In this document: positions 32,916 through 51,839 of the stretch, piece after piece
Layout of the letters: each line of letters opens with the position of its first letter
How positions within the stretch are numbered: position 1 is the first letter of the stretch
Virus record (IMG/VR): IMGVR_UViG_3300045988_079011
Direction: 5' to 3' (one strand)
Length of the DNA stretch: 52,660 nt
Source: a virus
Translations under genes and position numbers: made by a program
Notes under the pieces: model-generated
What the model was told of the DNA's origin: nothing
Databases searched by the model: none
What the model saw: only the letters and a program-made list of their open reading frames with translations

Positions 32916-35900
32916 ATGGCAAAAAGGAAAATAAGCGGAATCATCAATGCGACTGAACATCCGATGAATCTTGAAACACCATGGAACCAGAAACAGCCGG
33001 ACGGCACCTATCATGCCTATGCCGGGGACGATGTAGAAGCGTTTCTGAAGAAGGAACTGTCAAACCGTACCCCTACTGAGGAACTGGTGAGCGGCGAGAC
33101 GAAGCCCCCTACATCCGGAACGGTGTTTGATGCAATGGTGGGTACGGTGACGGACGTGGATGTGCAGGACAGCGAGGACGGCACTCAATATGTGATGACC
33201 GTGAAGCAGAAGGATAACCAGGGCGGCGAGAGCTCGAAGGAGGTGCGCTTCTCGAAGTACACCGACGACGACAAGGTGGTGTTGTACATTGACCTGACGG
33301 ACAGCGGCGGCGCGGGACTTCCCTCGCAGCAGTACCTGGCACTGGGAAGCGGTTTTGTGGTGAAATACTCTGTGGGCGTGGGTACTGCCGGTGGCGGTAC
33401 GGTGGACGGCTACAGCGACCTGAAAGCCCGCGTGATTGTGAAACGCGGTTCGACCGTGATCAGTGAGTTCCGGGATGCAGAGTTTGTGGGCGTGACAGCC
33501 GGACAGGCTTATACCTTTGACGCTTCGCCCTACCTGAAGGATGCCACCGCCTATACCGTGCAGGTGGAAGCGCAGGCAACCTACCAGGGCGGCACACTGA
33601 TGAAGACGGCCACGGCCAAGGTGACCATGGTGGCCATGGAGCTGGAGACCAGCTACTCGGCGGGCAACGGGCTGGCCGACGGGGGATATAAAAATGACGT
33701 GAACATCCCCTTTACTGCCAAGGGCACGAGCGGGGAGAAGAACATCTACTACCGCATCAACGGCGGGCAGGCCTTTACCCTCGGTCTTTCGGCCGGCAGC
33801 GGTGTGCAGCAGAAGAACGTGACCATCCCACTGGCTCAGATGCAGGAGGGTACGAACGTGGTGGAAGCCTACGCGCAGCATGAGAACTCCGGTGTGGTGA
33901 GCCGGGTGCATTACATTACGCTGCTGAAGGCAGGAGGCGGTGTGACAGCGTATGCCGGCCTGATGTTCAGCCACCGGGCAGCGGGGTTCCAACGCGACTG
34001 GAAACATCCGGTGCTGGAGGCAGAGCAGTTCACGGCATGGGCCTTTACGTATGCCGGCTATGACCGCGATGCGTACACGGCCCGTGTGAAAGTGACGGGC
34101 CAGGGCAGCGTGGTGAAGGAAGACCTGCTGCAGCGCGGTGAGACCGGCAGCTACGGACGGACGAACGTGAACGTGGAACCGCTGGACTACCGTGTGTCGT
34201 GCGGCGATGCCGTGCTTGAGGTGCAGGTGAACACCACATCGCACCCGGACATTGAAGCCACGCTGGCACCGGATGCCGTGTGTACGTTTGACGCCTTCGG
34301 GCGAAGCAACACGGAAAACAACCCGGCAAGCTGGGTGAGCGGTGACAAGCGCATGGAGTTCCGGGACGTGCTGTGGAGCGTGAACGAATATGGTGCCGGT
34401 AGCGGCTGGCACAAGGACCGCCTGCTGCTGGCCGGTGGTGCAGGTATGACCCTGACCGCTGACGGCGGGTACCGCCCCTTCAACGAGGCGGACAAACCCG
34501 AAGGCTTTGCTATTCGTGATGTGGGCATGACACTTGAGATAGAATACAGCACGGCCAACGTGACGGACACGGATGCGGAGCTGATCACCTGCCTGGGGCA
34601 GCTGGACAACGGGAACCGGTACGGGCTGATTGTGACCCCGGAAGAGGCCAAGTTCCTGACCGGAGTGGTGACCGAGGCGATGGATGCCGGACAGGTGCTG
34701 CGCTATGAGGACTCGGTGGGTACGAAGTTCCAGCCGGGCACGAACATCCGCATTACCTACGTGTTCTATCCGAACGTGCAGACCAATGAACAGCGCACGC
34801 TGATCGGTTTCTATGTGAACGGTGAAGAGTCGGCTGCTTCCAAGTGGCTCGACAAGGTGAATTTTGACATTCAGAGCCAGCTGGAATTTAAGTCGGCAGG
34901 TGCCGACCTGAACGTGAAGAGCGTGCGTATCTATAACAAGGCGCTGACCTCGGATGAGGTGCTGAACAACTACATCGTGGACCGCAACCACCTGGAGGAT
35001 GCCGACGGGGAACCGGGCGTGCGCTCGCTGGATGAGGACAACCGCGTGCTGAACGAAGGAGACACGGTGAGCATGGAGAAGCTGATGGGGCTGATGAAGA
35101 AGCGCCGGAACTCGATCCTGGTACTGATAGGCACGGGCAGCGTGGGCAGTGAGGTTCCGAGCGAGAGCGACACGCTGAACGTGGTGGATGCACTGGCCCA
35201 GCTGAACGACAAAAAGGCCAACAAGCTGGTAAGGGAGGTCCGTTTCTATAACGGAGAGGACAGGACGCTTGACTTTATCCTTACCAACGTATATGTCCGT
35301 ATTCAGGGTACTTCTTCCGTGAACTATGCCAGAAAGAACTTCCGTTTCTACTTCCAGAAGACGGCAAGCGGCTGGACGGTTACATTGAGCTACGGGGAGA
35401 TTGACGGAAACGGCAGGCAGAAGAATCCGGTGGTAACTACCGGCAAAAAAAATCTCTTCAAGTTGCGCAGGAACTCCGTAGGCGCGAAGCTGGCATGTTC
35501 CAAATGCGACTTCTCGGACTCGTCCATGACCACCAATACCGGTGGTGCGAAGCTTATCAATGACGGACTGAAAGAGATGGGGCTGCTTACGCCTGCCCAG
35601 CGTTACGCCAAAGACCACGGGCTGGAGGATGATTACCGTTCGGCCATCGACGGCCTGCCGTGCGACCTGTTCGTAGCGAAGAGTGCCGACGAAGACCTGA
35701 CCTATTACGGCCAGTACAACATGAACAACGAGAAGAGCGACAGCTACCCCATCTTCGGGCAGGATGAGACCATCGGCGGCGAGAAATGGGGCGAGGGCGA
35801 CACGCTGAACTATCTGGAAGCCGACGAGGAAGGACACAAGCAGTACCTGCCAATCTGCTTCGAGACGCTGAACAACTCCAATCCGCTGTGCCTGTTCCAC

Positions 35901-38900
35901 TGGTTGCCGAGTACCGAACCGGAGCATAAGGATTTCATGGACTACAACTTTGACGGAGGACTGGAGTTCAACCATCCGAAAGATACCTTCTGGGCTGACG
36001 GAGGCGGTGATGCCGAGGAAGAACCGAATATGAAAGACCACTTGGGGCAGGGTGATGTGTACGATAAGATGTATAAGGCTACCGACCGCATGATGAGCTT
36101 CGTTTACCGCTGTGTGAAGGAAACTCCTGCCGGAAAGAGTATGACTTACAGTATGGAATCGCATGCGTTCGAGGGGGTAGATTATGAAGATGATGGCGAC
36201 AAGTTCCCTACCGCTAAATGGAAGAGCGATACGTTTAAGAAAGAGGCATCGAAGTATTTCGACCTTCCCCATCTGATAGCTTACTATCTGTACGTGCAGT
36301 TTAACCTTGGTGTCGACCAGCTTGCCAAGAACATGCTTATCCGTACTTGGGACGGGGTGAAATGGTTGATTACTTATTATGACGGAGACTGCCAGTTGGG
36401 TTCAGACAACAAGTCATTCCTTACGGGAAAATATAACGATAACCGTCAGACCAAGCGCGACGGGGCTTATGTGATGCAGGGTCATAACTCGTGGCTGTGG
36501 AACCTCATCGTGGCCAATTGCTGGGACATGATTGTGGAGATTATGGTGAGCGGATGGAACGGGGGCGCAAGCTTCATGAGTGCCTTCAGTATCCAGAAAG
36601 CCATTGACCATTTCGATACCGAACAGATGAAGAAGTGGTGCTCACGCCTCTATAACAAGTCCGGCATCTTCAAATACATCTACCCGTTCCTGAACGAAAT
36701 GCCGGTAGGTGCTGACGGTGCCAAACAGACGTATCCGCAAATCTACGGTCTGAAGGGTTCGTTAAAAGCACACCGGAACTACTTCATCCAACGCAGGTAC
36801 GACCTGAAGCAGGTGGAGTACGGCTATGTATCTACGCTGGGTGCCCAGTTCTACCAGAGTACGGCATCGCTGGACAAGGCTTATAAACTGAAACCGATGC
36901 AGTACCGGCTGACCATCCCTTACCGTGTGCAATTATCCACCTCAAACGGTATACAGGCTGACAGCGGCGTGGTGGATGCAGACGTGCTCCATTCCCTGCA
37001 GCTGACCCGTGCCTTCGGTGAGAACGACCCGCTGAAGATTATCGGTGCAGCCAAAATCAAGGAGCTGGTATGGCACGAGGATGCGTTCGCAATCGGCTTC
37101 AACTTCGGTCTGCTGACCTCACTGGTAAAACTCGACATGAGCGTGGAGAAAGCCAGCGGTTACCGGAACGGCTCGTTCATGGCTTCGACGAACGGCATGC
37201 TGCTTTTGGAAGAAGTGAACATGCGGAACAACCGGCTGGCCCGGAACGGGGACAACGGGAATGTGGCTACTTTGGACTTGAGCTGGCAGGGCCGCCTGAA
37301 GAAACTGGACGTGAGGGGTACGGGGCTGACCCGTGTGAAACTGGCCACCGGTGCGCCCGTTGTGCAGTTATGCCTGCCGGACACGATTGAGGAACTGTTC
37401 CTGGAATATCTGACCAAGCTGTCCGATAGTGGCCTGATACTGGAAGGCATCAATAATGTGCGGGGCTACCGCTACACCAACTGCCCCGGCATCGACGGGT
37501 TCGCTATGCTGGAACGCCTACATCAGGCCAGACTGAACGGCAGCGGCAAGCTGGAGCGCTTCGTGCTGGAGATAGACCGGGAAGACGACGGAACCCTGCT
37601 GAAGAAGTATTACGACTACGGAACGTATACGCAGACGGGTGCCGTGGATGACCGGCATTCGGGACTGAGGGGCAAGCTGACCCTGACGAAGTATCTGGCC
37701 GATGAGGAACTGGAGAAGTATGCCGCCCGTTATCCGGAACTGACCATCAAGCAGCCGCCCTATACGATGATCGAGTTTGACGACAGCGTGGCCGACGATG
37801 CCAATATTTCAAACCTGGACAACAAGACCGGATACAAGTTCGGGAATGCGTACAAAATGAGCGGGCATGTGAATGCCATCCTGTCCAAGCGCCACCGCGT
37901 ACTGGCCAAGGTGACCAGGATGCCTACGAACCGGAAGGTGGAGATAGCCGGGCAGCAGGTGGAAGTGAACAACCCGGACGGGGAGATGACCTATTTCCCC
38001 CTGCATGACGAAAGCTCGAACTTCTATGCCGATGCGGAGGATATGAACGACTGCACGGTGGCGAAGCTGGACGGCAGCGAGGGAGACTGGATGATGTATG
38101 AACCGTTCTACTGGAGCAAGGGTATCAATGACTATCTGGCTGGCAAGAAGTACGCCTGCTACAGCAGCTATCCGGAGGACGAAATGCCCCCTGTTCCGGA
38201 GGCAACTATACTGACGCTGGATGCGATCAAGGAAACACAGGGCGGCTGGCTGGGTGAACGCAAGATCATGAGCGGAAAACCTACGTTGATGGAATCCTAT
38301 ACGACTGACAAGGCCTATTCGGTTTGTAAGGTGGATGTATCCGGCTACAGACGTGTCCGCTTTCCGAGCGTTCCCGGTACGGGGCTTATCGGCAGTGTGT
38401 TTGTGGATGATGCAGGAAGCATCCTGAAGAGCATCGTGGTGCCGACCATCGGCTTGAAATTTGAAGCCGGCATGTATCTGATAGCAGACGTTCCGGAACG
38501 TGCTACAGCCCTGCATTTCTCCATTCTGAACACGGCAGAGTTTGACTGCGTGGTACTGAGCCACAGCGACAAGATAGAGGACATGGAACCGGATTGGGTG
38601 GCCAATGAGGAGCATCTGTGTGCCGTTGTGGGCAGTTCGGTGGTGGGCAGCAAGCTTCGTGCCTGCATAACCGGTACCTATACAGCCGGAAGCATGACCT
38701 GGACGGACTTCCACTACTACAGCCAGCAGCGGGGCATGCAGCAGATAGATGCGCTGATGCACAGCCGCATTGCGAATCTGAGCTATGCACGGTACGGTCG
38801 CAGGGACATGCAGGAACAGTGCGGTGCCGGGGAGCATAATTACAATAGAATAACGGGTGGAACGGCAGAGCATGGGATGACAGATACCATCGGCTACGAT

Positions 38901-39407
38901 GAAGCGTATGCCATCAACAACAAAATCACGAATTCGCTGATTGAAGGTCTGGTGCACCAGTATGCCTGGTATAAGAGCCGTGACGAATACGGACAGGAGA
39001 CTGTGGTGCAGGTGAAAAATATCTGCTGCCTGGGCTATGAGGACATCTACGGCAACAAGTATGACATGATGGACGGCGTGGATCTGCCGAACGACAGCGG
39101 CAACGTGGGCAAATGGCGCATCTGGATGCCGGACGGCACGGTGCGCTGGGTGCAGGGGAAAAAGGACAGCGGACAGTGGATTTCAGGCGTGGCACACGGC
39201 AAGTATATGGACCTGGTTCCGGTGGGTAATCTGAACGGATCATCTTCTACTTACTATACCGACATGTACTGGATAAGCACCGCTACAGTCCGTGTGGTCT
39301 ATCGCGGGTACAACAATGCGAACGCGAATGGCGGTGTGTCGAATGCGAATGCGAATAACGATGCTTCGAATACGAATGCGAATATCGGCTCGCGTCTGGA
39401 AATCTAA
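32916..39407 (+). CDS. Giant multidomain tail fibre / receptor-binding protein, DGR target (C-terminal C-type-lectin-fold VR)
   Basis: 2163 aa. LamG-like segment (VKSVRIYNKALTSDEVLNNYI). CotH-like motifs (VRIQGTSSVNYARKNFRF; NLFKLRRNS; WDGVKWLITYYDGDCQLG). LRR-like segment (aa ~1370-1550). C-terminus VVYRGYNNANANGGVSNANANNDASNTNANIGSRLEI fits the CLec-type VR pattern RG...N..IG.RL. Confidence 0.85.
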   Translation: MAKRKISGIINATEHPMNLETPWNQKQPDGTYHAYAGDDVEAFLKKELSNRTPTEELVSGETKPPTSGTVFDAMVGTVTDVDVQDSEDGTQYVMTVKQKDNQGGESSKEVRFSKYTDDDKVVLYIDLTDSGGAGLPSQQYLALGSGFVVKYSVGVGTAGGGTVDGYSDLKARVIVKRGSTVISEFRDAEFVGVTAGQAYTFDASPYLKDATAYTVQVEAQATYQGGTLMKTATAKVTMVAMELETSYSAGNGLADGGYKNDVNIPFTAKGTSGEKNIYYRINGGQAFTLGLSAGSGVQQKNVTIPLAQMQEGTNVVEAYAQHENSGVVSRVHYITLLKAGGGVTAYAGLMFSHRAAGFQRDWKHPVLEAEQFTAWAFTYAGYDRDAYTARVKVTGQGSVVKEDLLQRGETGSYGRTNVNVEPLDYRVSCGDAVLEVQVNTTSHPDIEATLAPDAVCTFDAFGRSNTENNPASWVSGDKRMEFRDVLWSVNEYGAGSGWHKDRLLLAGGAGMTLTADGGYRPFNEADKPEGFAIRDVGMTLEIEYSTANVTDTDAELITCLGQLDNGNRYGLIVTPEEAKFLTGVVTEAMDAGQVLRYEDSVGTKFQPGTNIRITYVFYPNVQTNEQRTLIGFYVNGEESAASKWLDKVNFDIQSQLEFKSAGADLNVKSVRIYNKALTSDEVLNNYIVDRNHLEDADGEPGVRSLDEDNRVLNEGDTVSMEKLMGLMKKRRNSILVLIGTGSVGSEVPSESDTLNVVDALAQLNDKKANKLVREVRFYNGEDRTLDFILTNVYVRIQGTSSVNYARKNFRFYFQKTASGWTVTLSYGEIDGNGRQKNPVVTTGKKNLFKLRRNSVGAKLACSKCDFSDSSMTTNTGGAKLINDGLKEMGLLTPAQRYAKDHGLEDDYRSAIDGLPCDLFVAKSADEDLTYYGQYNMNNEKSDSYPIFGQDETIGGEKWGEGDTLNYLEADEEGHKQYLPICFETLNNSNPLCLFHWLPSTEPEHKDFMDYNFDGGLEFNHPKDTFWADGGGDAEEEPNMKDHLGQGDVYDKMYKATDRMMSFVYRCVKETPAGKSMTYSMESHAFEGVDYEDDGDKFPTAKWKSDTFKKEASKYFDLPHLIAYYLYVQFNLGVDQLAKNMLIRTWDGVKWLITYYDGDCQLGSDNKSFLTGKYNDNRQTKRDGAYVMQGHNSWLWNLIVANCWDMIVEIMVSGWNGGASFMSAFSIQKAIDHFDTEQMKKWCSRLYNKSGIFKYIYPFLNEMPVGADGAKQTYPQIYGLKGSLKAHRNYFIQRRYDLKQVEYGYVSTLGAQFYQSTASLDKAYKLKPMQYRLTIPYRVQLSTSNGIQADSGVVDADVLHSLQLTRAFGENDPLKIIGAAKIKELVWHEDAFAIGFNFGLLTSLVKLDMSVEKASGYRNGSFMASTNGMLLLEEVNMRNNRLARNGDNGNVATLDLSWQGRLKKLDVRGTGLTRVKLATGAPVVQLCLPDTIEELFLEYLTKLSDSGLILEGINNVRGYRYTNCPGIDGFAMLERLHQARLNGSGKLERFVLEIDREDDGTLLKKYYDYGTYTQTGAVDDRHSGLRGKLTLTKYLADEELEKYAARYPELTIKQPPYTMIEFDDSVADDANISNLDNKTGYKFGNAYKMSGHVNAILSKRHRVLAKVTRMPTNRKVEIAGQQVEVNNPDGEMTYFPLHDESSNFYADAEDMNDCTVAKLDGSEGDWMMYEPFYWSKGINDYLAGKKYACYSSYPEDEMPPVPEATILTLDAIKETQGGWLGERKIMSGKPTLMESYTTDKAYSVCKVDVSGYRRVRFPSVPGTGLIGSVFVDDAGSILKSIVVPTIGLKFEAGMYLIADVPERATALHFSILNTAEFDCVVLSHSDKIEDMEPDWVANEEHLCAVVGSSVVGSKLRACITGTYTAGSMTWTDFHYYSQQRGMQQIDALMHSRIANLSYARYGRRDMQEQCGAGEHNYNRITGGTAEHGMTDTIGYDEAYAINNKITNSLIEGLVHQYAWYKSRDEYGQETVVQVKNICCLGYEDIYGNKYDMMDGVDLPNDSGNVGKWRIWMPDGTVRWVQGKKDSGQWISGVAHGKYMDLVPVGNLNGSSSTYYTDMYWISTATVRVVYRGYNNANANGGVSNANANNDASNTNANIGSRLEI
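39287..39407 (+). repeat. DGR variable repeat position (assembled sequence identical to the TR)
   Basis: In frame with the last 40 codons of the target gene. 121/121 identical to the reverse complement of 13254-13374. All 11 AAY codons are intact. Confidence 0.7.
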
Positions 39408-39421
39408 TTAATCGGCGTACA

Positions 39422-39489
39422 GCACCGGGGACGTGTCCCCGAAGCGGTGCCGAGGGAAGCAAGCCACAGCAACAGCACCCATTAGGGTG
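39422..39489 (+). promoter_or_regulatory. Hairpins downstream of the repeat (copy of 13172-13239)
   Basis: Exact reverse-complement copy. GCACC-GGGGA-CGTG-TCCCC-gaagc-GGTGC at 39422-39450 and CACCC-ATTA-GGGTG at 39476-39489. Confidence 0.5.
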
Positions 39490-39602
39490 GAAAGCTGAAA
39501 AATCACGCGTCGGGTGGAGTTTGGTAGGCTGTTATCAGTTCGAAGAAGTCAGATCCGGGGAAAGGAAGGCCCTTATCTTTCATGTTTATTAACCAATAGC
39601 TT

Positions 39603-40904
39603 ATGCGCAGGGAAGGATATATTATCGAGGAAATCATCGAATACTCCAATATGTCGGAGGCATTCGATTCGGTACTTCGCGGAACCGGTCGTAAGAGGTC
39701 AAGGCAGGGACGATTCCTGCTTGCCCATAGGGAGAAGATTATCGCCGAACTGACGGCTTCCATTGCGGACGGTTCATTCCGGCTGGGCGGCTACCATGAG
39801 AGGGAAATTGAAGAATACGGTAAAAAACGTATTTTGCAGATCCTGTCCATGAAAGACCGCATCGCTGTGTTTGCCATCATGAATGTGGTGGACCGCCACC
39901 TGCAAAAACGTTATATCCGGACAACCGGTGCAAGCATCAAAAGGCGCGGTACTCATGATCTGATGAACTGCATACGTACCGATTTGCAAAAAGACCCGGA
40001 AGGCACACTTTACGCATACAAGTTTGACATCCGTAGGTTTTACGACAATGCGCGGCAGGACTTTGTTATGTGGTGCTTCCGGAGGGTGTTCAAGGACGAA
40101 AGGCTGTTGGTGCTACTGGAGCGGTTTGTTAAGCTGCTGCCGGAAGGTATAAGCTTCGGACTGCGCAGTTCACAAGGGGCAGGAAATCTGCTTCTGTCTG
40201 TATTTTTAGACCACTATCTGAAGGATAAGTACGGGGTTCGTTATTACTATCGCTATTGCGATGACGGACTGGTACTCGGTAAAACGAAAGCGGAATTGTG
40301 GAAGATTCGTGATGTTATTCACAGGCAAATGGGAAAAATAGACTTGGAAATAAAGCCGAATGAACGGGTATTCCCTGTAGAAGAAGGCATTGATTTCCTT
40401 GGCTATGTTATCCGTCCCGACTATGTAAGATTGCGGAAACGTATCAAGCAGAAGTTTGCCCGGAAGATGCACGAGGTAAAATCGAGAAAAAGACGGCGAG
40501 AACTGATTGCCAGTTTCTACGGCATGACGAAGCACGCCGACTGTAATAAGTTGTTTAAAAAATTAACAGGCAAAGAAATGAGAAGTTTTAAAGACTTGAA
40601 TGTCGCTTACAAGCCGGAGGACGGCAAGAAGCGATTTCCCGGTGTGGTGGTAAGCATCCGGGAACTGGTAAACTTACCGATTGTAGTGAAGGACTTTGAG
40701 ACCGGTATCAAGACCGAGCAGGGAGAAGACCGCTGTATTGTGGCCATCGAAGTGAACGGCGAAGCAAAGAAGTTCTTCACCAACAGCGAGGAAATGAAGA
40801 ATATTCTCGCACAAGTAAAGGAAATGCCGGATGGTTTCCCGTTTGAAACGACCATCAAGACAGAGACATTCGGCAAAGGTAGAACCAAATACGTGTTTAC
40901 ATGA
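39603..40904 (+). CDS. DGR-type reverse transcriptase (arm copy)
   Basis: Exact reverse-complement copy of 11757-13058 with an identical 433-aa translation. Confidence 0.9.
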   Translation: MRREGYIIEEIIEYSNMSEAFDSVLRGTGRKRSRQGRFLLAHREKIIAELTASIADGSFRLGGYHEREIEEYGKKRILQILSMKDRIAVFAIMNVVDRHLQKRYIRTTGASIKRRGTHDLMNCIRTDLQKDPEGTLYAYKFDIRRFYDNARQDFVMWCFRRVFKDERLLVLLERFVKLLPEGISFGLRSSQGAGNLLLSVFLDHYLKDKYGVRYYYRYCDDGLVLGKTKAELWKIRDVIHRQMGKIDLEIKPNERVFPVEEGIDFLGYVIRPDYVRLRKRIKQKFARKMHEVKSRKRRRELIASFYGMTKHADCNKLFKKLTGKEMRSFKDLNVAYKPEDGKKRFPGVVVSIRELVNLPIVVKDFETGIKTEQGEDRCIVAIEVNGEAKKFFTNSEEMKNILAQVKEMPDGFPFETTIKTETFGKGRTKYVFT

Positions 40905-41386
40905 GAAGAGTTGAAGGAAGTGCCGGTGTATCGCTGATGGAATGCACGAACCCGGTTAAAGACAAATGGCGCATCCGCTGGGATGTGCAGGAAAAAGAGA
41001 ACGGCTCTGCCTCCTACATGGAAGAGGAGTTCGGACACAAGCCTACTGATGAGGAAATCCGCACATTGGTTATGTCATGGTATAACAGCCAGACTGATGC
41101 AGCTATCCTATCCGGATTCGCCTATAATGGCGCCCCTGTATGGCTTTCTACGGAGAACCAATACAACTATAAGGCAGCATACGATTTGGCCGTTCAGACG
41201 GGCGGAGAGACCCTTCCGGTTACATTCAAATTCGGTTCGGATGAACAGCCCGAATACCATACCTTTGAAAAGTTGGATAATCTGAAGGACTTCTACATTC
41301 AAGCGGTCAGACACATCCAAAACACACTGGCTGAAGGATGGAAAAGGAAAGATGTATTCAACTTGGATTTATATCGGATTGAATGA
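40901..41386 (+). CDS. 161-aa RT-coupled protein (arm copy)
   Basis: Exact copy of 11275-11760. Confidence 0.55.
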   Translation: MRRVEGSAGVSLMECTNPVKDKWRIRWDVQEKENGSASYMEEEFGHKPTDEEIRTLVMSWYNSQTDAAILSGFAYNGAPVWLSTENQYNYKAAYDLAVQTGGETLPVTFKFGSDEQPEYHTFEKLDNLKDFYIQAVRHIQNTLAEGWKRKDVFNLDLYRIE

Positions 41387-41411
41387 TTGACAATCCCTTC
41401 GGGGGAAGGAT

Positions 41412-41561
41412 AAAAAAAAGCCCCCGGCCTGTTAAATAGTCGTCTCACTTACCATTTAAACATAAAGCACCTCTTACCGGCACGACCGGGGGCAGATACC
41501 CTCGTTCGCCAGTAAGAGGCTTTTTTATGTAAGCGCTATTCTGCGCAATGATAAGTGAGAC
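41412..41561 (-). ncRNA. Candidate structured RNA (arm copy)
   Basis: Exact copy of 11100-11249. Confidence 0.35.
41470..41526 (+). terminator. RT-operon terminator (arm copy)
   Basis: Exact copy of 11135-11191. Hairpin followed by T6 at 41521-41526. Confidence 0.6.
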
Positions 41562-41589
41562 AATGCAAATGTACGAAATTTAACTGGAT

Positions 41590-41832
41590 ATGAAAGTAAT
41601 TGAGATACTAAAATTGAACAGAGAGCTTTTAAAAACGTGCCATTACATGGGCATACGACCCGATGACGTGCAATATATAGAACTATATAATGAATATAAC
41701 AAGTTGCAGACCAATGGTGAAAAAGTGTCTTATATCGTAGCTACGCTTTCCCTACGATATGGCATCAGTGAGCGAAAGGTGTATGACCTGATCAAGCGTT
41801 TTAAAACCGACTGCAATTTGTGTGCAGTGTAA
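41590..41832 (+). CDS. Small HTH protein (arm copy)
   Basis: Exact copy of 10829-11071. Confidence 0.5.
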   Translation: MKVIEILKLNRELLKTCHYMGIRPDDVQYIELYNEYNKLQTNGEKVSYIVATLSLRYGISERKVYDLIKRFKTDCNLCAV

Positions 41833-41870
41833 TCAGGACTTCCTCCCACTAAAGGCAAACTCCCCTACCC

Positions 41871-41878
41871 TACCTTTG
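41871..41878 (+). promoter_or_regulatory. -7 box TACCTTTG (arm copy)
   Basis: Exact copy of 10783-10790. Confidence 0.4.
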
Positions 41879-41903
41879 TATCGCAATAAATAACATTCAT
41901 ATC

Positions 41904-42542
41904 ATGGACAAGTATTATCAAATCTTAGGCAAGGTGCTTTCGTCCGGAAAGATGCAAAGCAATAAAAAAGGGAATATCCGCTACCTACTGAATGAACAGC
42001 TGACGCTGCTCCCTGCCGACCTTCTTGATATATTCGAGGGGCATACCATAGCGCGGAAGAAGTTAAAAAACGAGTTACAACTGTTTATGAGGGGCGAACG
42101 AAACGTGGAAAAATACAGGGAGGCCGGAATCAACTGGTGGGACTACTGCGGCTCTATCCTTGTGAACAGCTACCCAACCTATTTTGAAAAACTGCCGCCA
42201 CTCATCGAACGCATAAACAGGGAAAAAAGGAACAGCAAAAACTATATATTGTTTCTCGGATCTACAGGAACAGAAAGCAACCAGGCTCCATGCCTTAGTC
42301 TTGTTCAGTTCCAGATAGAGCAAGGAGAACTGGTCATGACCGCCTATCAGCGAAGCAGCGATGCGAATTTAGGACTGCCGGCAGATATTTATCATTTGTA
42401 TCTAATATCAAGACAGATTGAGTTGCCACTAAAATCCATCACCCTGAATCTGGGGAATGTGCATATTTACGAAAACAACATCGACAAAACAGAACAGCTG
42501 CTTGCCGGCAATGAAAATGTAAAATTTGAATTGAACGTATGA
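41904..42542 (+). CDS. Short ThyA-family enzyme (arm copy)
   Basis: Exact copy of 10119-10757. Confidence 0.75.
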   Translation: MDKYYQILGKVLSSGKMQSNKKGNIRYLLNEQLTLLPADLLDIFEGHTIARKKLKNELQLFMRGERNVEKYREAGINWWDYCGSILVNSYPTYFEKLPPLIERINREKRNSKNYILFLGSTGTESNQAPCLSLVQFQIEQGELVMTAYQRSSDANLGLPADIYHLYLISRQIELPLKSITLNLGNVHIYENNIDKTEQLLAGNENVKFELNV

Positions 42543-43378
42543 GAAAGATGTATCTGTCAGCCCCTCTCCCATTTGTCGGGCAAAAGCGTATGTTAGCCAA
42601 GGAATTCATGAAAGTGCTGGAGCAATATCCGGATGGAACATTGTTTGTTGACCTGTTCGGTGGCTCCGGATTGTTGTCTCACATTACCAAATCCCTCAAG
42701 CCCCACTCTACTGTTATCTATAATGACTTTGATAACTACCGCTTCCGCATGAAGCACATTCCGCAAACGAATCAGCTGCTTGCTGACATTCGCGAAATGG
42801 TAGGGAATTCCGTACCACGTCATAAAATCATTAAAGGAGAACTGCGTGAACGAATATTCAGCCGCATCGAGCAGGAAGAGAATAGCACCGGATATGTGGA
42901 TTTCATTACCCTCTCCTCCTCTATCTTGTTTTCCATGAAATACAAACTGTCTGTTCAGGATATGCGGAAGGAAGCTTTATACAACAATATACGCAAGACC
43001 GGCTACCCGGAATGTACGGACTATCTCGAAGGGCTGGAAATCGTATCTTGCGATTACAAGGAAGTATTCAACCGGTATAAAGATATTCCTGGAGTAGTAT
43101 TTCTTGTTGATCCGCCCTATCTGTCCACTGACGTAGGGACCTATAACATGTACTGGAATATGGCAGACTATCTGGATGTGCTGAATGTACTGAAGGGGCA
43201 TTCATACGTATATTTCACATCCAACAAATCTTCAATTCTGGAGCTGTGCGAATGGATAGGTAAAAATAGGGATTTAGGTAATCCTTTTGAAAACTGCACA
43301 AAGGTGGAATTCAATGCTCACATGAATTACAACTCTTCTTACACAGATATGATGCTTTACAAGAAAGAGGCTGCCTGA
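42539..43378 (+). CDS. N6-adenine DNA methyltransferase (arm copy)
   Basis: Exact copy of 9283-10122. Confidence 0.85.
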   Translation: MRKMYLSAPLPFVGQKRMLAKEFMKVLEQYPDGTLFVDLFGGSGLLSHITKSLKPHSTVIYNDFDNYRFRMKHIPQTNQLLADIREMVGNSVPRHKIIKGELRERIFSRIEQEENSTGYVDFITLSSSILFSMKYKLSVQDMRKEALYNNIRKTGYPECTDYLEGLEIVSCDYKEVFNRYKDIPGVVFLVDPPYLSTDVGTYNMYWNMADYLDVLNVLKGHSYVYFTSNKSSILELCEWIGKNRDLGNPFENCTKVEFNAHMNYNSSYTDMMLYKKEAA

Positions 43379-43404
43379 TTGCGTTTACTTTGCCTGTATT
43401 GAAC

Positions 43405-43446
43405 AAAAAAGCCGCAGACGGTAATTTGTACGTCCGCGGCTTTTTC
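43405..43446. terminator. Bidirectional terminator (arm copy)
   Basis: Exact copy of 9215-9256. Confidence 0.7.
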
Positions 43447-43462
43447 TGTCTAATAAAGACGG

Positions 43463-43897
43463 CTATTGCAGCCGCTTGATGGCCACACACTGATATACCT
43501 CGATACTTTCCACAATATCCTCATGGTTGTGATTGGTATCACTCTCCACCAGATCCAGCTCCAAAAAGGTCTCCCCGCTCAATCCGGCAAGCTGTGCATG
43601 AAGCAGTCCGGACAGGTCAAACACCTTCAGCGCATCCTCCTGCAGCTCGCTGCCCTCAGCACTCGAACCTTCCCAGTCCGTCACGATGTGCAGTTTAATC
43701 AAAGGTTCTGCCCGGTATTCCACACCGGGAACAATCGCATTCCACTGTATAGGGCAGAATTCCACAAAGACAGCCGGACGCTCCCAGTTTTCTTCCTGTT
43801 CGATGAATTCCACATTATGGTTCCACAAGTCTATGTGCTTGATAAGGTCAATGGCCTTCAGCTCCCGGCAAAGCATCCGGTAAAGTTCTTTTCTCAT
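43463..43897 (-). CDS. Hypothetical structural/connector protein (arm copy)
   Basis: Exact copy of 8764-9198. Confidence 0.5.
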   Translation of the reverse strand: MRKELYRMLCRELKAIDLIKHIDLWNHNVEFIEQEENWERPAVFVEFCPIQWNAIVPGVEYRAEPLIKLHIVTDWEGSSAEGSELQEDALKVFDLSGLLHAQLAGLSGETFLELDLVESDTNHNHEDIVESIEVYQCVAIKRLQ

Positions 43898-44454
43898 TTT
43901 CTTATGATATTATATTCAATGGTAAAATACTCTGTTAGGTTCTCTTCTACAATCTCACGGACGGCTTTTTCCACTTCAGGCGATGTGCCGAGGAAACGGC
44001 GTCGGGGAATCCTGATGGTGCTTCCTGCTTTCTTTAAAGCCATGAACATCCAAAAATCGGCTTCTGTATCAAGCCGGACATTTCGTTTGTCTTTTCGAAG
44101 TTTGCCGTCTTTTCTTCTACCGAACGCTCCGGTTGCCTCATAATACTTATGCCAGAAGAAACGCTTCATCCGCTTGGTCACCACTATTTCACCGCCATCA
44201 TTATGAATGGCCGCATAGGGCAGAGAGGTAAAGAAGGTAATGCTGTTTTCCGTTGTCCGACTTCCGATACTTTTCCGAAGCGCCCCGGTATCTGTTAGTA
44301 TGGCTCTACCTTCATTCCGGATGGGGCTTTTCCGTCGCTGCCATTTCTCACTGAAAAAAGCCTGCCGTTCAAAGTTCTTGTCAAACTCATCACTCATTTC
44401 CACCTGAATGTCTTTCAGTATCCGGGCCACTACTTTTTTTACGTTTTCATTCAT
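43894..44454 (-). CDS. Mu G / HK97 gp10-like morphogenesis protein (arm copy)
   Basis: Exact copy of 8207-8767. Confidence 0.6.
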   Translation of the reverse strand: MNENVKKVVARILKDIQVEMSDEFDKNFERQAFFSEKWQRRKSPIRNEGRAILTDTGALRKSIGSRTTENSITFFTSLPYAAIHNDGGEIVVTKRMKRFFWHKYYEATGAFGRRKDGKLRKDKRNVRLDTEADFWMFMALKKAGSTIRIPRRRFLGTSPEVEKAVREIVEENLTEYFTIEYNIIRK

Positions 44455-44684
44455 TCCCAGTCAAAGTTAAATTTCAATTGTACCGTATCGTCCGGCAAAT
44501 CATTTTTAGGGTCTGCGGACGCTTTAAGCATATTGTAGAATGTACGCTCACTAATAGCATACACAGGATATATGTACCGCCGCCATATTTCACGGTTCGG
44601 TACACCGTGACTGGCATAATGGTCATATATCCTGTTTACTTCTACTACACGCTTCTGATAACTGACTCCGTGCCGCTTTCCCAT
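44451..44684 (-). CDS. Small putative DNA-binding protein (arm copy)
   Basis: Exact copy of 7977-8210. Confidence 0.4.
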   Translation of the reverse strand: MGKRHGVSYQKRVVEVNRIYDHYASHGVPNREIWRRYIYPVYAISERTFYNMLKASADPKNDLPDDTVQLKFNFDWE

Positions 44685-44690
44685 ATAGGT

Positions 44691-44927
44691 TTAATCGTTC
44701 ATAGACGGTTCTACTTTAGGTTTATAGGGACGGATGTCAAGCGTCATTTTTGCGCTTACCGTTACCCGGCCACTTCCTTCACACTGTCTGCAGACTTCCT
44801 CAACGGTTTCGCTTCGCTTCTTTCCAAAGATCCGAGAGGGATATTCTACAACTTTCTTTACTTTACCTGTACCGTAGCAAGCACGGCACAGGGCTACTTT
44901 CGGAGATTTCTCCACTTCTTGTATCAT
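44691..44927 (-). CDS. CxxCxGxG zinc-finger protein (arm copy)
   Basis: Exact copy of 7734-7970. Confidence 0.55.
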   Translation of the reverse strand: MIQEVEKSPKVALCRACYGTGKVKKVVEYPSRIFGKKRSETVEEVCRQCEGSGRVTVSAKMTLDIRPYKPKVEPSMND

Positions 44928-44938
44928 AGTTCTATTAT

Positions 44939-45607
44939 TTATGATTCTGTCATTCCCAGAGGGATAGGTTTCCACATTCCGTTTTCGTTTTTGATTTCAG
45001 CACGGATAAACTGTTTGCTCACTTCCGGCTGGTAGGCTTCCTCAATGATACGCACACCTTCAATGAAACGGTCATCTCCGGTTTCCATGGCCACTTTGCG
45101 AAGCTGCACGATGCGTGAAGCCTTCAGCGTTCCCTTGGCATCACGGGCCAACAGACGAAGCACCATGCTCACCAGTGCCTTGGTCTTTTCATCTTTGGCC
45201 AGACCTTCGATGTATTCCTTCACAATGGCTATACCGTCTTCCACCGTGTCACGGTAACCGTCGGTCACATACACACCCAGCGTGATTCGTTTGTCGCCTT
45301 CACTGTTAGTAAAGGTATGGCTGCGCTGGTCATCCTTCACCTTGGTCTTGAAAAGGTCTGCCTTCATTTCCAGAATGGTTTTGAAGTTGTCCATCACAGT
45401 CTGCTTGCTTGCCTTGATCTGCTCACTGATGCCCAGCAGTACCGGAATGGAGTTTGCTATCTCCTCATCCACCATCTGTTTGTACATTTCGCGGTCATTC
45501 TTGGCTTTTTCCTCTGCCGCTTTCTTTGCTTTTTCTCTCTGGAAGGCTTCAAATTCCGCCTTTTCCTCTGCCGTCATTACCACGGTCGTTTGTTTCATTT
45601 CTTCCAT
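44939..45607 (-). CDS. DUF3164-like protein (arm copy)
   Basis: Exact copy of 7054-7722. Confidence 0.5.
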   Translation of the reverse strand: MEEMKQTTVVMTAEEKAEFEAFQREKAKKAAEEKAKNDREMYKQMVDEEIANSIPVLLGISEQIKASKQTVMDNFKTILEMKADLFKTKVKDDQRSHTFTNSEGDKRITLGVYVTDGYRDTVEDGIAIVKEYIEGLAKDEKTKALVSMVLRLLARDAKGTLKASRIVQLRKVAMETGDDRFIEGVRIIEEAYQPEVSKQFIRAEIKNENGMWKPIPLGMTES

Positions 45608-45625
45608 GATTCTTGTTTTTTGGGG

Positions 45626-45808
45626 TTATTGGTTTTCATAATCCTGCATTTCAGGTTCGTCTTCCATCAGCATAGCCTCTCCGTTGGCGTATGCCCAGTC
45701 AGCCAATTCACTATAAAACTCGGCTGCATCTTGCTTCTCCATATCAGAGGCAAGCAGGTTGATTTCCTTTTTCAGATTCTCTAAAATCTTTGTGTTTCTA
45801 TTTTCCAT
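45626..45808 (-). CDS. Small acidic protein (arm copy)
   Basis: Exact copy of 6853-7035. Confidence 0.45.
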   Translation of the reverse strand: MENRNTKILENLKKEINLLASDMEKQDAAEFYSELADWAYANGEAMLMEDEPEMQDYENQ

Positions 45809-45814
45809 ATCCTA

Positions 45815-46321
45815 TCAGTTTGCCGGAGCATCAGGGTCAATCTGAATGAGTGATACCATGCTCACGGGGTTAATCGTTTGCTTTTCTTTCCTGGGCTTCA
45901 AGCCGCCTTTCCGTTGTATGGACCGAAGCTTTACCGCCAGTTCATCCAGTTCGTCCACCGTAATCTGTCTGAACGCTTTGCCGACTATTCGGGGATTACT
46001 GCAGAAGTCATTGATTCGTGCCCAGTCGGATGTATCTATGCCCAGCTTCTGCATCAGGTTCAGACAGAGACTCCGTTTCCGCCGCAGCTCCTCACGCAGC
46101 TTCTGTCGCCATTCGTCTTGTCCGCTCAGCTTCTCCAGAGCCGTACAGCAGGCTTCATACTCCTTGGCTGTCATTTCCTTCAGACTGTCCGTCCGGTTCC
46201 ACGTGTACTGCAGCACAATGCTTTTCTTGAATTCTTCCCGGTCTCCTGTACAGGGAAGCTTGTTGAACAATGTGTAGAACCGGGCGAAATTGGTTACTTC
46301 CTGTGCCATGTCATTTACCAT
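45815..46321 (-). CDS. Hypothetical early protein (arm copy)
   Basis: Exact copy of 6340-6846. Confidence 0.5.
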   Translation of the reverse strand: MVNDMAQEVTNFARFYTLFNKLPCTGDREEFKKSIVLQYTWNRTDSLKEMTAKEYEACCTALEKLSGQDEWRQKLREELRRKRSLCLNLMQKLGIDTSDWARINDFCSNPRIVGKAFRQITVDELDELAVKLRSIQRKGGLKPRKEKQTINPVSMVSLIQIDPDAPAN

Positions 46322-46583
46322 TAAGAATCATTTCACATTCCGTTGATTTGGTACTGACACGATAAATTATCTTATCCGGCTTCACTGATTTACCTTTGTA
46401 TTCAGCCTCAATTTGCTTAGCAAATATCTTTTTGAACTCATCACCCATTTTAGAAAGTATTTCTTTATTGTACTCCCCGCAAAAACCTATGCGTGAGGAT
46501 TGGATTTCACGAATTGTTCCTCTATATACCGTAGCGGTCAACTTCATCACCACAACACCGGTTTCCATTTTTATTTTTCCCAT
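46311..46583 (-). CDS. Hypothetical early protein (arm copy)
   Basis: Exact copy of 6078-6350. Confidence 0.5.
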   Translation of the reverse strand: MGKIKMETGVVVMKLTATVYRGTIREIQSSRIGFCGEYNKEILSKMGDEFKKIFAKQIEAEYKGKSVKPDKIIYRVSTKSTECEMILNGK

Positions 46584-46594
46584 ATCGACTAATT

Positions 46595-47068
46595 TTATTC
46601 AAACAACACTTTAATGCCACACGAACTGGCCACGTCAAGTTCCAGTTTGGCTCCCTTGCTCAGTTCCCAGTCCTTCAGCATATAGATATAGTCACAAGCC
46701 AGCAACAGGGCAATGTCGGCCCGCATGTGGGCTCTCCAATGAGCTTCATCCGGCAATCCGTTCCTGAAAGGGTTTACAGGGTCATAGCCTTGTGCCTTCA
46801 GTTCCTCCTCGGCACGGCTGAAGGCTTCCTTGCGCTCATCCATGTCATAATGCGCGATAGCTCCGCTGATGTACACCTTCCCGGCACCGGTCGCCTCACC
46901 GCGCTGATAAGCCTTGTGCCGTTCCCACCGTTCCGGAACGACCACACTGTAGTTGCACGATTGGCAGCAGCAGCCTTCTTCTTTCACCGGGAACGGATTG
47001 TATCCGTAGCCCTCATACTCTTTGCCGCAGATGCAGCACACTTTCTTTTCTTCTTTCTTTTCCATCAC
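46595..47068 (-). CDS. Zn-ribbon + DUF4406-like protein (arm copy)
   Basis: Exact copy of 5593-6066. Confidence 0.55.
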   Translation of the reverse strand: MMEKKEEKKVCCICGKEYEGYGYNPFPVKEEGCCCQSCNYSVVVPERWERHKAYQRGEATGAGKVYISGAIAHYDMDERKEAFSRAEEELKAQGYDPVNPFRNGLPDEAHWRAHMRADIALLLACDYIYMLKDWELSKGAKLELDVASSCGIKVLFE

Positions 47069-47069
47069 T

Positions 47070-47318
47070 TCAAATCTTTTTAATGTTTACTTTACAACTT
47101 GGATTCCATATCAGCACATTACGTGCAAACAAGACATCACCCGTTTCTATTACGACATGACCGGGCATTTTCGCTCTTCTCACTTTTAAGTCGCTTTGGA
47201 TGTTTCGCTCCAGCCAGTCATCCAATACGGACCGGCTGGAATTTCCGTCCAGCAGTATCTGGAACACTTCAGTTCCGGTGTAGCTTTCAAAAGCCTTCTC
47301 GTTATTATCCATAATCAT
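47070..47318 (-). CDS. Hypothetical early protein (arm copy)
   Basis: Exact copy of 5343-5591. Confidence 0.5.
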   Translation of the reverse strand: MIMDNNEKAFESYTGTEVFQILLDGNSSRSVLDDWLERNIQSDLKVRRAKMPGHVVIETGDVLFARNVLIWNPSCKVNIKKI

Positions 47319-47941
47319 TTTGGTAAATTATTACTTGTTTGAATGATTCCGTCTTCCCATACCACATAATAGCTTCCCGGGTCTCCAATGGCGCGTCCTT
47401 GACAATAAGCTTTATAACCGACCACCCGAATCTTCATATCACAGATATATTTCAATCTTACTGCACCGCCACCCATCGGCTGGCTTTTCTTTTCCTGGCT
47501 GATCCAGATGAAACATTTCTTCGGAAAGGTTTCCATCAGTTCCACAGCCTGCGGATAATCCCATCCGGCCACCTGAAAGGAATCGATGATGATAAACTTC
47601 GGGCTTTTCGGTTTTTTCAGTCTGGCAATCACTTCCTCCAGACTGCCTTCTGTCACCACACGAAATTTACCCTGCACCTCATTCATCTTCAGATAACCCA
47701 TACGCCGTTGGAAGCTTTGGTTGATTTTCTCTTCGTAACTCATGTACAGCACCGTCCCATAGTTGCACAGTTCCTTTCCAAGTTGCATCACAAAGCTGCT
47801 TTTCCCACTGGCACTGGCACCGCTGATGAACCACGAAGCGTTCTCTGCCGGGAACCCGAAAGGTTTGCTCCATTTCTCATCCCACGGCAGAGTAACCCAT
47901 TTCTTGGCGGCTATTTCCTTCGGACTGTACGCACGCTTCAT
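47315..47941 (-). CDS. P-loop NTPase (arm copy)
   Basis: Exact copy of 4720-5346. Confidence 0.65.
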   Translation of the reverse strand: MKRAYSPKEIAAKKWVTLPWDEKWSKPFGFPAENASWFISGASASGKSSFVMQLGKELCNYGTVLYMSYEEKINQSFQRRMGYLKMNEVQGKFRVVTEGSLEEVIARLKKPKSPKFIIIDSFQVAGWDYPQAVELMETFPKKCFIWISQEKKSQPMGGGAVRLKYICDMKIRVVGYKAYCQGRAIGDPGSYYVVWEDGIIQTSNNLPK

Positions 47942-48819: not shown

Positions 48820-48857
48820 AATTCTAACGCTGTTTTAATGTTGTTCTAATTCTATTC

Positions 48858-50897: not shown

Positions 50898-50906
50898 AGC
50901 CGCCTC

Positions 50907-51281
50907 CTATCTCAATGCCGATGCAAACGCTTGGATTTGGTTAATATCGGCAACCATCACATGCTCGTAAGTCTTCACCGTTTCTCCCTTGAATATTACC
51001 TGACCGCTACCATCATTACGGTCAAGCTCTATCAAGGCACCGTTCGGACAGTACTGACGCATCACATTGTCATAATCATGGAAAGTTTCTATTTCCGGAA
51101 TAACAACCATCACAATACCGCCACGATCCATGGCCAACTTACGGATCTTTGCAGAAAGTTCGGAGTTGCCACGACGGTCATCAAACCGGATAGCGTTATA
51201 AACAGTCTTCTCTGTCACGTTGAGTGCCTTTGCGATAAAGTCGCGGTCGGCTTTCGTAATGTGAATGTACCTCTTGTTCAT
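50907..51281 (-). CDS. Ner-position HTH protein (arm copy)
   Basis: Exact copy of 1380-1754. Confidence 0.55.
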   Translation of the reverse strand: MNKRYIHITKADRDFIAKALNVTEKTVYNAIRFDDRRGNSELSAKIRKLAMDRGGIVMVVIPEIETFHDYDNVMRQYCPNGALIELDRNDGSGQVIFKGETVKTYEHVMVADINQIQAFASALR

Positions 51282-51307
51282 ATCTCACTTGTTTTAATGA
51301 TTAATAT

Positions 51308-51356
51308 TGGGGGGAGTCCGGGGAATCGAACCCCGGCACAAGAACCATGCACTCCC
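51308..51356 (-). ncRNA. tRNA-like minihelix (arm copy)
   Basis: Exact copy of 1305-1353. Confidence 0.3.
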
Positions 51357-51414
51357 GTGTGTCTTTCCACACCGTCACCCGTCTCTTAACGCCTTCCGGG
51401 TTGTCACGCTGGGT

Positions 51415-51831: not shown

Positions 51832-51839
51832 AATCTCAC

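Follow-up and report, generated by a model that had tools for sequence, protein, structure and literature searches.

The window analysed here is a stretch of viral DNA of 52,660 nt (IMG/VR record IMGVR_UViG_3300045988_079011), and all coordinates refer to this whole stretch. On its plus strand, at 1764-4720, it carries genes for a MuA-like transposase (679 aa; phrog_310 'transposase', 1.8e-48) and a MuB-like protein (292 aa; phrog_296 'DNA transposition protein', 2.1e-41), which are the mark of a transposable phage. Mu-type head genes are present as well (Portal_Mu, 2.2e-74; Phage_Mu_F, 3.8e-13). They lie in a unique middle segment (13375-39286), in which minus-strand genes for a Mu F-like protein, a Mu-type portal and a large terminase are followed by plus-strand late and tail genes up to the target gene of a diversity-generating retroelement (DGR).

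The body of the target gene (32916-39286, plus strand) encodes a tail-fibre-like protein and is genuine up to the last base before a repeat that occupies the position of the variable repeat (VR). As presented, the ORF extends from 32916 to 39407 and encodes 2163 aa, the C-terminus being ...VRVVYRGYNNANANGGVSNANANNDASNTNANIGSRLEI*, with 11 Asn codons, all of them AAC or AAT, just as the preliminary description had stated. The protein shares 42% identity over 2046 aa with the VR-carrying 'tail fibre' CDS of hankyphage jmh72_hp, and its last 400 aa match phrog_14959 (4.6e-149). Searches of Pfam and NCBIfam with the same 400 aa, and of PDB sequences with the last 300 aa, gave no match. An exact look-up of the 2163-aa product found it on record nowhere else. 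For the hankyphage homologue, a C-type lectin domain has been reported (PMC6199706). The 35 nt directly preceding the repeat (39252-39286) are common to 45 IMG/VR loci and served as an anchor.

The genuine template repeat (TR) is located on the minus strand at 13262-13374, in its native context: a non-coding stretch of about 60 nt and a small ORF with a hydrophobic product lie upstream, and a spacer RNA and the reverse transcriptase (RT) gene lie downstream. The same context was found in at least 16 IMG/VR contigs and in MT839296. The small ORF (77 aa; 13434-13665, minus strand) directly upstream of the TR holds the position of hp41 in hankyphage, and searches of Pfam and phrog gave no family match for it. 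The structured spacer RNA between TR and RT belongs to the RT-3 family (Rfam RF03068; 13104-13251, minus strand); its mirror copy at 39410-39557 (plus strand) scores 153.8 bits against a gathering score of 40.5 and covers model positions 1-148 of 148. The RT gene (11757-13058, minus strand; mirror copy 39603-40904, plus strand) lies 204 nt from the TR and matches RVT_1 (2.7e-11) and phrog_1423 'Reverse transcriptase' (6.3e-105). The motifs FGLRSSQ and YCDD, typical of DGR RTs, are readable in its DNA. An Avd-like ORF of 161 aa (11275-11760, minus strand; mirror copy 40901-41386, plus strand) overlaps the RT stop codon. Its match to DUF4376 is weak and falls short of the Pfam cut-off. It also matches phrog_19239, whose function is unassigned, at 1.2e-73, and its positional counterpart in PV107408 carries the annotation Avd. 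The rest of the cassette (9283-11200, minus strand) comprises a Mor/HTH-like ORF, a thymidylate synthase and a Dam-type methyltransferase, all searched on their mirror copies at 41590-43378. The early operon and the cassette converge on a palindromic, terminator-like hairpin (9216-9255; mirror copy 43406-43445), and this junction was also found in MT837734 and in IMG/VR contigs. Of the features by which a DGR is recognised, the window thus holds an RT within about 1 kb of a TR, a TR of the AAY type and a structured RNA in the TR-RT spacer.

The TR contains 28 adenines in 113 nt, of which 27 fall at codon positions 1-2 of the target frame, and it forms 11 AAY codons. The repeat in the VR position (39287-39399, plus strand; 113 nt) is identical to it, with all 28 adenines intact. 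These 113 nt are the homology that a VR would have in common with its TR, and their 3' end is GGCTCGCGTCTGG, a GC-rich IMH-like segment at 39387-39399 that closes the repeat. The next 8 nt (39400-39407), which end the target ORF, are the TR-specific 3' flank AAATCTAA and produce a false C-terminus 'EI*'. With regard to IMH and IMH*, the shared GGCTCGCGTCTGG is thus present, but it is followed in the window by the TR-side AAATCTAA only, the VR-side CCTTCCGCGG... being seen only in relatives. The preliminary description had reported that the stretch 39287-39407 is identical to the TR beside the RT, and exact comparison with 13254-13374 (minus strand) bears this out at 121/121, although the match is part of a much longer identity of 13,374 nt. 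A 30-mer from the stretch has exactly two exact matches in the window, at 39324-39353 (plus) and 13308-13337 (minus), and none in a shuffled sequence. A search of the window with the TR, any base being allowed at its adenines and up to 12 mismatches elsewhere, returned only the two mirror copies and no independent second repeat. In the window as assembled there is, therefore, no cognate VR differing from its TR at adenines, only two mirror copies of the TR; the VR flank and the motif of the phage right end were both searched for and are both absent from the window.

Exact comparison within the window revealed that the segment 39287-52660 is the reverse complement of 1-13374, over 13,374 nt with 0 mismatches. 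The inverted duplication runs to both ends of the contig, and the 121/121 repeat match is merely its first 121 nt. If the right arm is called A and the middle segment B, the layout is rc(A)+B+A, and the inner boundary coincides with the first base of the DGR repeat: the bases directly before the two repeat copies are unlike, ...CACCGCTAC in one case and ...CTTCCCGAT in the other. The repeat at 39287-39399 is thus the pivot of a fold-back, and we read the right arm (39287-52660; 13,374/13,374 identical) as artefactual. Genuine long terminal inverted repeats are not supported, as the boundary is the DGR repeat itself and in a complete relative of 40.5 kb the arm occurs only once and the right end is different. 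Neither phage end is contained in the window.

Related IMG/VR contigs indicate what should stand at this place. The flank CCTTCCGCGG follows the repeat in 29 of 31 complete related VRs, and a VR flank was found in 94 of 120 protein-cluster representatives, about 9 of the 120 reading through into the TR flank. This real VR flank, CCTTCCGCGG..., encodes AFRGKIVRAQSVAAYKAIREVA* and is followed by a terminator and the phage right end. Judging by these relatives, the real target protein should run 22 codons further, to AFRGKIVRAQSVAAYKAIREVA*. In 10 contigs the sequence ...GCGGATTATA lies about 420 nt after the VR, and what comes next is unrelated between contigs; such a shared sequence followed by divergence marks a transposable-phage end in these relatives. 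When 20 related VRs of equal length were compared with the TR, differences were present at 194 of 520 A sites and at 2 of 1600 non-A sites, so that the VRs are unlike the TR at 37% of the TR-adenine sites scored. Diversification in relatives is thus strongly adenine-specific, and a fully unmutated VR would be unexpected.

At least 16 IMG/VR contigs (about 88-99.6% identity), as well as MT839296 and MT837734 (99.4-100%), show the gene order of the left arm without interruption: early operon, inverted cassette, head genes, late genes. The complete relative IMGVR_UViG_3300045988_073267 is 40,542 bp long and its first base lies exactly at the right end. In this genome, which has the inverted (type-II) layout, the VR is near position 400 and the TR near 26.8 kb on the other strand. 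All 10 mismatches between the two fall on TR adenines, with 0 at any other base, and a long inverted repeat is absent from the genome.

The locus proves to be a trouble spot for assembly in general, the sequence being broken inside the VR in 14 of 45 assemblies. In the loci L029 and L151, the target gene is joined to an unmutated repeat and the TR flank, as in the window, while in L108 a diversified VR is joined to a foreign TR flank. Chimeras induced by repeats are known to have their breakpoint at a repeat boundary, with the copy of higher coverage replacing the other and the region beyond it being duplicated. The window resembles them in all three respects: its breakpoint is at a repeat boundary, one copy is replaced, and there is a duplication beyond the breakpoint. 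It differs from the usual case in that the copies are inverted, hence the long false terminal inverted repeat; in the direct-repeat relatives L029 and L151 we see the usual deletion instead of a fold-back.

It needs to be added that three other suspicions about this group of contigs were considered and dropped. The junctions between early operon and cassette and between cassette and head genes would be further misjoins if the canonical hankyphage order were assumed, but two GenBank fragments and no fewer than 16 independent IMG/VR contigs span them, which rules this out. Some IMG/VR contigs with a VR and a TR far apart on the same strand turned out, from their contig ranges, to be canonical scaffolds with a short gap inside the VR. 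Several IMG/VR contigs of about 52 kb, which might have been more fold-backs, are distant relatives, with no fold-back in the loci examined.

Taken together, the window is very probably a chimeric fold-back contig of a hankyphage-like transposable phage of Bacteroides/Phocaeicola with a working DGR, and the 121 nt at the end of its target gene are the TR; this reading is drawn from sequence comparison. We hold with equally high confidence that the apparent "unmutated VR" is an artefact of assembly rather than a real biological feature, and the missing diverged VR is attributed to a fault of the assembly, not of the element. The preliminary description had inferred that the real VR was replaced by TR sequence in this assembly, and this idea gains support from the TR context that continues 3' of 39399 (RT-3 RNA, RT and Avd-like ORF), from the VR 3' flank, missing here and present in 29 of the 31 related VRs, from the 13.4-kb identity that runs to the contig end and mirrors the other end, and from the adenine-specific diversification in relatives. 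What it missed is that the artefact is not a local substitution but a fold-back of the whole contig, and that in this lineage the VR and the TR lie in opposite orientation at a distance of about 26 kb, which is why the artefact takes the form of a fold-back.

The following course of events could account for the contig. The real genome would be about 40 kb long and would start with the early MuA/MuB operon; next, on the opposite strand, would come the DGR cassette (small ORF, TR, RT-3 RNA, RT, Avd-like, Mor-like, ThyA and Dam), and then the head genes, the late and tail genes and the target gene with its VR. The VR would be followed by a further 22 codons, then by a terminator and, after about 290 nt, by the phage right end ...GATTTGCGGATTATA. 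Such an order would make VR and TR inverted repeats about 26 kb apart. In the sample, the VR would be represented by a cloud of low-coverage adenine-site variants and the TR by an invariant sequence at full coverage. We infer that the assembler took the TR path: it (or, possibly, a chimera formed during in-vitro amplification) would have come into the repeat from the target gene and left along the TR side. It would then have re-read the cassette and the early region backwards, stopping at the node of the other contig end. Since the two repeats are inverted, the result would be a fold-back rather than a deletion, with an all-adenine-intact repeat in the VR position, the false 'EI*' C-terminus and a perfect terminal inverted repeat of 13,374 nt, and the contig would be left without the true VR, the flank 3' of it and the right end. 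Under this scenario, reads from the target gene would lead into many adenine-site variants and then into ...CGTCTGGCCTTCCGCGG, while a real junction would give uniform, exact TR followed by AAATCTAATTAATCGG.

Two observations about the join itself should be mentioned. It uses the contig's own TR flank, as a real recombinant also would. Besides, only about 23 nt are common to VR and TR ahead of the first adenine that is commonly diversified, and an assembly with large k would thus need partly unmutated VR variants as a bridge.

An alternative that deserves to be weighed, improbable as we consider it, is an inversion isomer: homologous recombination between VR and TR might have flipped the segment 13375-39286 in part of the population, with the assembler merging both isomers. 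On one hand, VR and TR truly are inverted repeats in this lineage, a flip would yield exactly the junction seen at 39287-39600, and the flank after the repeat is the contig's own. On the other hand, the reciprocal junction (type-II TR-upstream context, repeat, VR flank) was not found among 72 TR-anchored loci, all repeats recovered from them having a TR-type 3' flank, and a dedicated scan for junctions brought up just two cases, L096 and L150, both of them loops in direct-repeat relatives. Moreover, a product that is TR-like throughout would call for a crossover within the initial ~23 nt, and diversified VRs match the TR at an identity of only about 88%. Apart from the window there is a single type-II case, L108; its TR flank is foreign, which makes it a chimera. 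Were the isomer real, a 26-kb segment of structural genes would flip in vivo and the tail-fibre gene would be fused to an unmutated TR directly upstream of the RT; this would be a naturally 'reset' state and might serve as a bridge in evolution from one cassette layout to the other. Even so, the complete contig would remain an artefact, and the 121 nt would be TR sequence all the same.

It is considerably less probable that a real molecule of 52.7 kb with terminal inverted repeats of 13.4 kb was sequenced, such as a dead-end replication or recombination product carrying the phage left end at both tips. The perfect identity of the arms fits a real duplication as well as an artefact. However, this molecule would be without the right end needed by a Mu-type transposable phage and about 12 kb above its complete relatives, which have 40.5-42.8 kb and package their DNA by size. 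Such a 13.4-kb duplication occurs in none of roughly 150 related loci, and its boundary falls exactly on a repeat known to confuse assemblers. The weakest candidate, to which we assign hardly any probability, is the one that the preliminary description had kept in reserve, namely that the VR is genuinely unmutated after a recent reset (by non-mutagenic conversion or recombination in that description, here taken as non-mutagenic retrohoming or gene conversion from the TR): near-intact VRs with the correct VR flank do exist (L014, with 1 A-site difference, and L033, with 2), though these may be consensus collapses, and we reject the idea because a reset swaps only the stretch from the 5' homology to the IMH-like segment and would keep the VR's own 3' flank, whereas here nothing remains of the flank, the 22 codons, the terminator or the right end, and the TR flank, spacer RNA and RT stand in their place.

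If the window is a fold-back contig, as we believe, some practical consequences follow. The 121 nt in question say nothing about the behaviour of the DGR at its VR. The contig would be about 13.3 kb too long, and its 13.4-kb "terminal inverted repeat" could pass for evidence of completeness; its tail-fibre protein would lack a real VR and end in a false C-terminus. In the window, no DGR would be called by finders that depend on adenine mismatches. One large survey looked for the repeat up to 20 kb from the RT (Roux et al. 2021, methods; PMC8144416), and pipelines with a 20-kb window would not pair a TR with a VR lying about 26 kb from the RT. With the pairing missed and the mismatches missing, DGR activity in this lineage could be under-counted. 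As a large share of the public assemblies are broken or mis-joined at this locus, studies of VR diversity in hankyphage-like phages should use reads, not contigs.

The closest known system is that of the hankyphages (Bacteroides phage p00 and the jmh72_hp group; Benler et al. 2018, PMC6199706; PLoS Biol 2025, PMC12135933; GenBank PV107408), likewise transposable, Mu-like phages of Bacteroides with MuA/MuB-like genes, a tail-fibre-like target (about 2200 aa) that carries the VR at the very C-terminus, and an AAY-rich TR. Gene content and gene order of their cassette agree with those found here (small ORF, TR, RT, Avd, Mor-like, ThyA, Dam), the nucleotide identity over the cassette being about 70-75%, and identical TRs with adenine-diversified VRs have been reported for them (PMC6199706, PMC12135933). 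Outside the cassette, nucleotide identity to the window lineage is low or undetectable. In all deposited hankyphage genomes the cassette directly follows the target on the same strand, at the right end. In the window lineage, by contrast, it stands in inverted orientation with the early operon on one side and the head genes on the other. Its distance from the VR is about 26 kb, and about 420 nt separate the VR from the genome end. The DGR of Bordetella phage BPP-1 is alike in having a TR, an RT and an accessory protein, adenine-specific mutagenesis of a C-terminal VR, and a GC-rich boundary element that closes the shared repeat and beyond which VR and TR diverge. Its layout is adjacent and same-strand (mtd-VR, avd, TR, brt), unlike that of the window, which has an RT-3-family spacer RNA, an accessory ORF downstream of the RT, and a distant target on the other strand. 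Among 372 GenBank DGRs, 45 had non-adjacent targets, nearly all the phage-associated ones lying less than 50 kb from the RT (Wu et al. 2018; PMC5758913), and the separation of 26 kb found here is within that range. A widespread hankyphage-like lineage keeps an active DGR with the cassette inverted and about 26 kb from its target, a modest variation on a known arrangement.

The 2163-aa tail-fibre-like ORF (32916-39407), the target of the diversity-generating retroelement (DGR), has the C-terminus ...VRVVYRGYNNANANGGVSNANANNDASNTNANIGSRLEI*. All 11 Asn codons in this end are AAC or AAT, and 27 of the 28 adenines of the 113-nt repeat occupy codon positions 1-2. A 30-mer taken from the stretch has two exact matches in the window, one per strand, and none in the shuffled sequence. 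The preliminary description had recognized 39287-39407 as a copy of the template repeat (TR); this observation is real, and the identity continues past 121 nt to 13,374 nt, as the reverse complement of 1-13374 equals 39287-52660 with no mismatches. The middle segment (13375-39286) is thus flanked by an inverted duplication whose inner edge is the first base of the DGR repeat, while the sequences immediately before the two repeat copies are unrelated. The window holds one sequence twice, not a separate variable repeat (VR) alongside a TR.

The copy at 39287 lies in a TR context. An RT-3 RNA (Rfam RF03068) starts 3 bases past the ORF stop, at 39410-39557 on the plus strand, as a full-length match of 153.8 bits against a gathering score of 40.5; its mirror copy, on the minus strand at 13104-13251, forms the TR-RT spacer. 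The reverse transcriptase (RT; RVT_1 match, phrog_1423 at 6.3e-105) lies 3' of this RNA and is followed by an Avd-like ORF of 161 aa and then, in that order, a Mor/HTH-like ORF, thymidylate synthase and a Dam-type methyltransferase. In the other arm, a small hydrophobic ORF and about 60 nt of non-coding DNA precede the repeat, which is also the layout of the hankyphage TR. The RT-3 RNA is useful for telling the TR side of a repeat.

What a real VR looks like was learned from related phages, using the 35 nt directly upstream of the repeat (39252-39286) as a search anchor, which matches 45 IMG/VR loci. In 29 of the 31 loci with complete VRs, ...GGCTCGCGTCTGG is followed by CCTTCCGCGGCAAAATCG..., a 3' flank coding for 22 more residues (AFRGKIVRAQSVAAYKAIREVA*) and then a terminator. 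This flank was not found anywhere in the window. Together with the TR context at 39287, its absence supports the main proposal of the preliminary description, namely that assembly put TR sequence in place of the real VR. Among 20 equal-length VRs, differences from the TR fall at 194 of 520 TR-adenine sites and at only 2 of 1600 others; with the set widened to 35 distinct VRs the counts are 324/875 and 66/2835, respectively. Two TR adenines, one in a TAT and one in a GAT codon, stand apart in this wider set: 39301 is never substituted and 39361 only once, the remaining ones being changed in 14-63% of the VRs, which suggests selection on those residues or an influence of sequence context on the RT. 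Of 120 cluster representatives from a large protein collection, 94 carry an AF.G-type tail, and about 9 (about 8%) have tails read through into the TR flank (EI, EIK, NNNRKEIL and others), their repeat being mostly unmutated and Asn-rich. No exact match to the 2163-aa product is on record elsewhere.

The window's layout, with the cassette inverted and distant from the target (type II), is shared by ten contigs in which ...CGATTTGCGGATTATA occurs about 420 nt past the VR and is followed by wholly different sequence in each, a pattern that marks the end of a transposable prophage. IMGVR_UViG_3300045988_073267, a complete and correctly assembled type-II genome of 40,542 bp, starts exactly with the reverse complement of this right end. 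Its VR lies near position 400 and its TR near 26.8 kb on the opposite strand; all 10 differences between them are at TR adenines, and the two diverge past GGCTCGCGTCTGG. The terminal sequence ...GATTTGCGGATTATA is common to type II (L009-L044, L139) and to type I, with the cassette after the target (L013, L151), but the sequence just inside it is not alike; the right end lies about 420 nt past the VR in type II and past the methyltransferase gene in type I. The window has neither phage end. Its tips fall within the repressor region and, judging from arm length compared with the complete relative, stop an estimated ~0.4 kb before the left end. The outermost 27 nt (1-27; mirror 52634-52660) are unlike GenBank MT837734, in which the equivalent of 313-436 is joined straight to 28 onward, and which lacks the 128 nt at 5469-5596 (mirror 47065-47192) but is otherwise 99.4-100% identical.

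The positions in the complete relative imply that the window's lineage has its VR and TR as inverted repeats separated by about 26 kb. Any walk that comes into the repeat on the target-gene side and goes out on the TR side therefore has to read the cassette and early region again, reversed, and such a fold-back is exactly what the window contains; we infer that such a walk took place during assembly. In the direct-repeat relatives L029 and L151 a deletion is seen instead: the target gene runs through an unmutated repeat into TR flank and RT, and about 600 nt are gone. Sequence ends or scaffold gaps fall inside the 113-nt VR in 14 of 45 assemblies, L108 has a diversified VR joined to another strain's TR flank, L096 and L150 contain additional loops through the repeat, and two TR-context loci have diversified content. 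Such broken and mis-joined loci fit a situation where the VR would be a cloud of low-coverage variants beside an invariant TR at full coverage. VR/TR mix-ups of every kind (collapse onto TR, diversified VRs running into a foreign TR flank, extra loops, VR content in TR context) occur in public assemblies of related phages, both in L029, L151, L108, L096 and L150 and in protein clusters P0005, P0007, P0013, P0020, P0073-P0075, P0092 and P0105.

The most serious rival is a real inversion isomer, since recombination between inverted repeats is possible and would yield the identical target-repeat-TR-flank junction. We give it only a very slight chance. No example was found of the reciprocal junction, in which a type-II TR-upstream context would lead through the repeat into the VR flank: every repeat recovered from 72 TR-anchored loci has a TR-type flank, and the only hits of a scan dedicated to this junction were L096 and L150, both loops in direct-repeat relatives. 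Moreover, a fully TR-like product requires a crossover inside about 23 nt, the sole other type-II case has a foreign flank, and even with a real junction the whole contig could not be a single molecule. A real 52.7-kb molecule bearing 13.4-kb inverted ends is unlikely in itself, as it has no right end and is longer than complete relatives (40.5-42.8 kb). Finally, the absence of the VR's own 3' flank rules out a recent non-mutagenic reset of the VR, the alternative offered in the preliminary description.

The apparently unmutated VR is not a genuine feature. A diverged VR, the defining test of a DGR, is missing from the window as assembled, and this is due solely to assembly; standard detection would miss this DGR. 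The case also serves as a warning, with its false terminal inverted repeat, overlong contig and wrong tail-fibre C-terminus.

The window's element is a hankyphage-type DGR. Its cassette shares about 70-75% nucleotide identity with Bacteroides phage p00 (hankyphage) and relatives, the target protein has 42% identity to the tail-fibre protein of hankyphage, and the window encodes MuA/MuB-like proteins, a Mu-type portal, a Mu F-like protein and a large terminase. Hankyphage is transposable, and its active DGR acts on the tail fibre (PMC6199706, PMC12135933). The possibility that the type-II order is itself an artefact was ruled out by relatives running uninterrupted across both cassette junctions: at least 16 IMG/VR contigs from different samples (about 88-99.6% identity), and likewise the GenBank fragments MT839296 and MT837734 (99.4-100%). 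A 40-nt near-perfect palindrome with A and T runs at its sides (9216-9255; mirror 43406-43445) sits where the early operon and the cassette converge and looks like a bidirectional terminator; homology to type-I relatives ends there. None of the deposited hankyphage-type genomes matching the cassette region has an inverted distal cassette; in every one it directly follows the target, close to the right end of the genome, where it is the last block. In hankyphage, target-VR, small ORF, TR, RT, Avd and the remaining cassette genes to the methyltransferase and right end follow one another on a single strand, whereas in the window the entire cassette (9283-13665, minus strand: small ORF, TR, RT-3 RNA, RT, Avd-like ORF, Mor-like ORF, ThyA, Dam) is inverted, with the early MuA/MuB operon on one side and the head genes on the other. 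In the type-II lineage it lies about 26 kb from the VR (target 32916-39399), and VRs remain adenine-diversified in this layout; an RT-target distance of 26 kb is within the known range for phage DGRs (PMC5758913).
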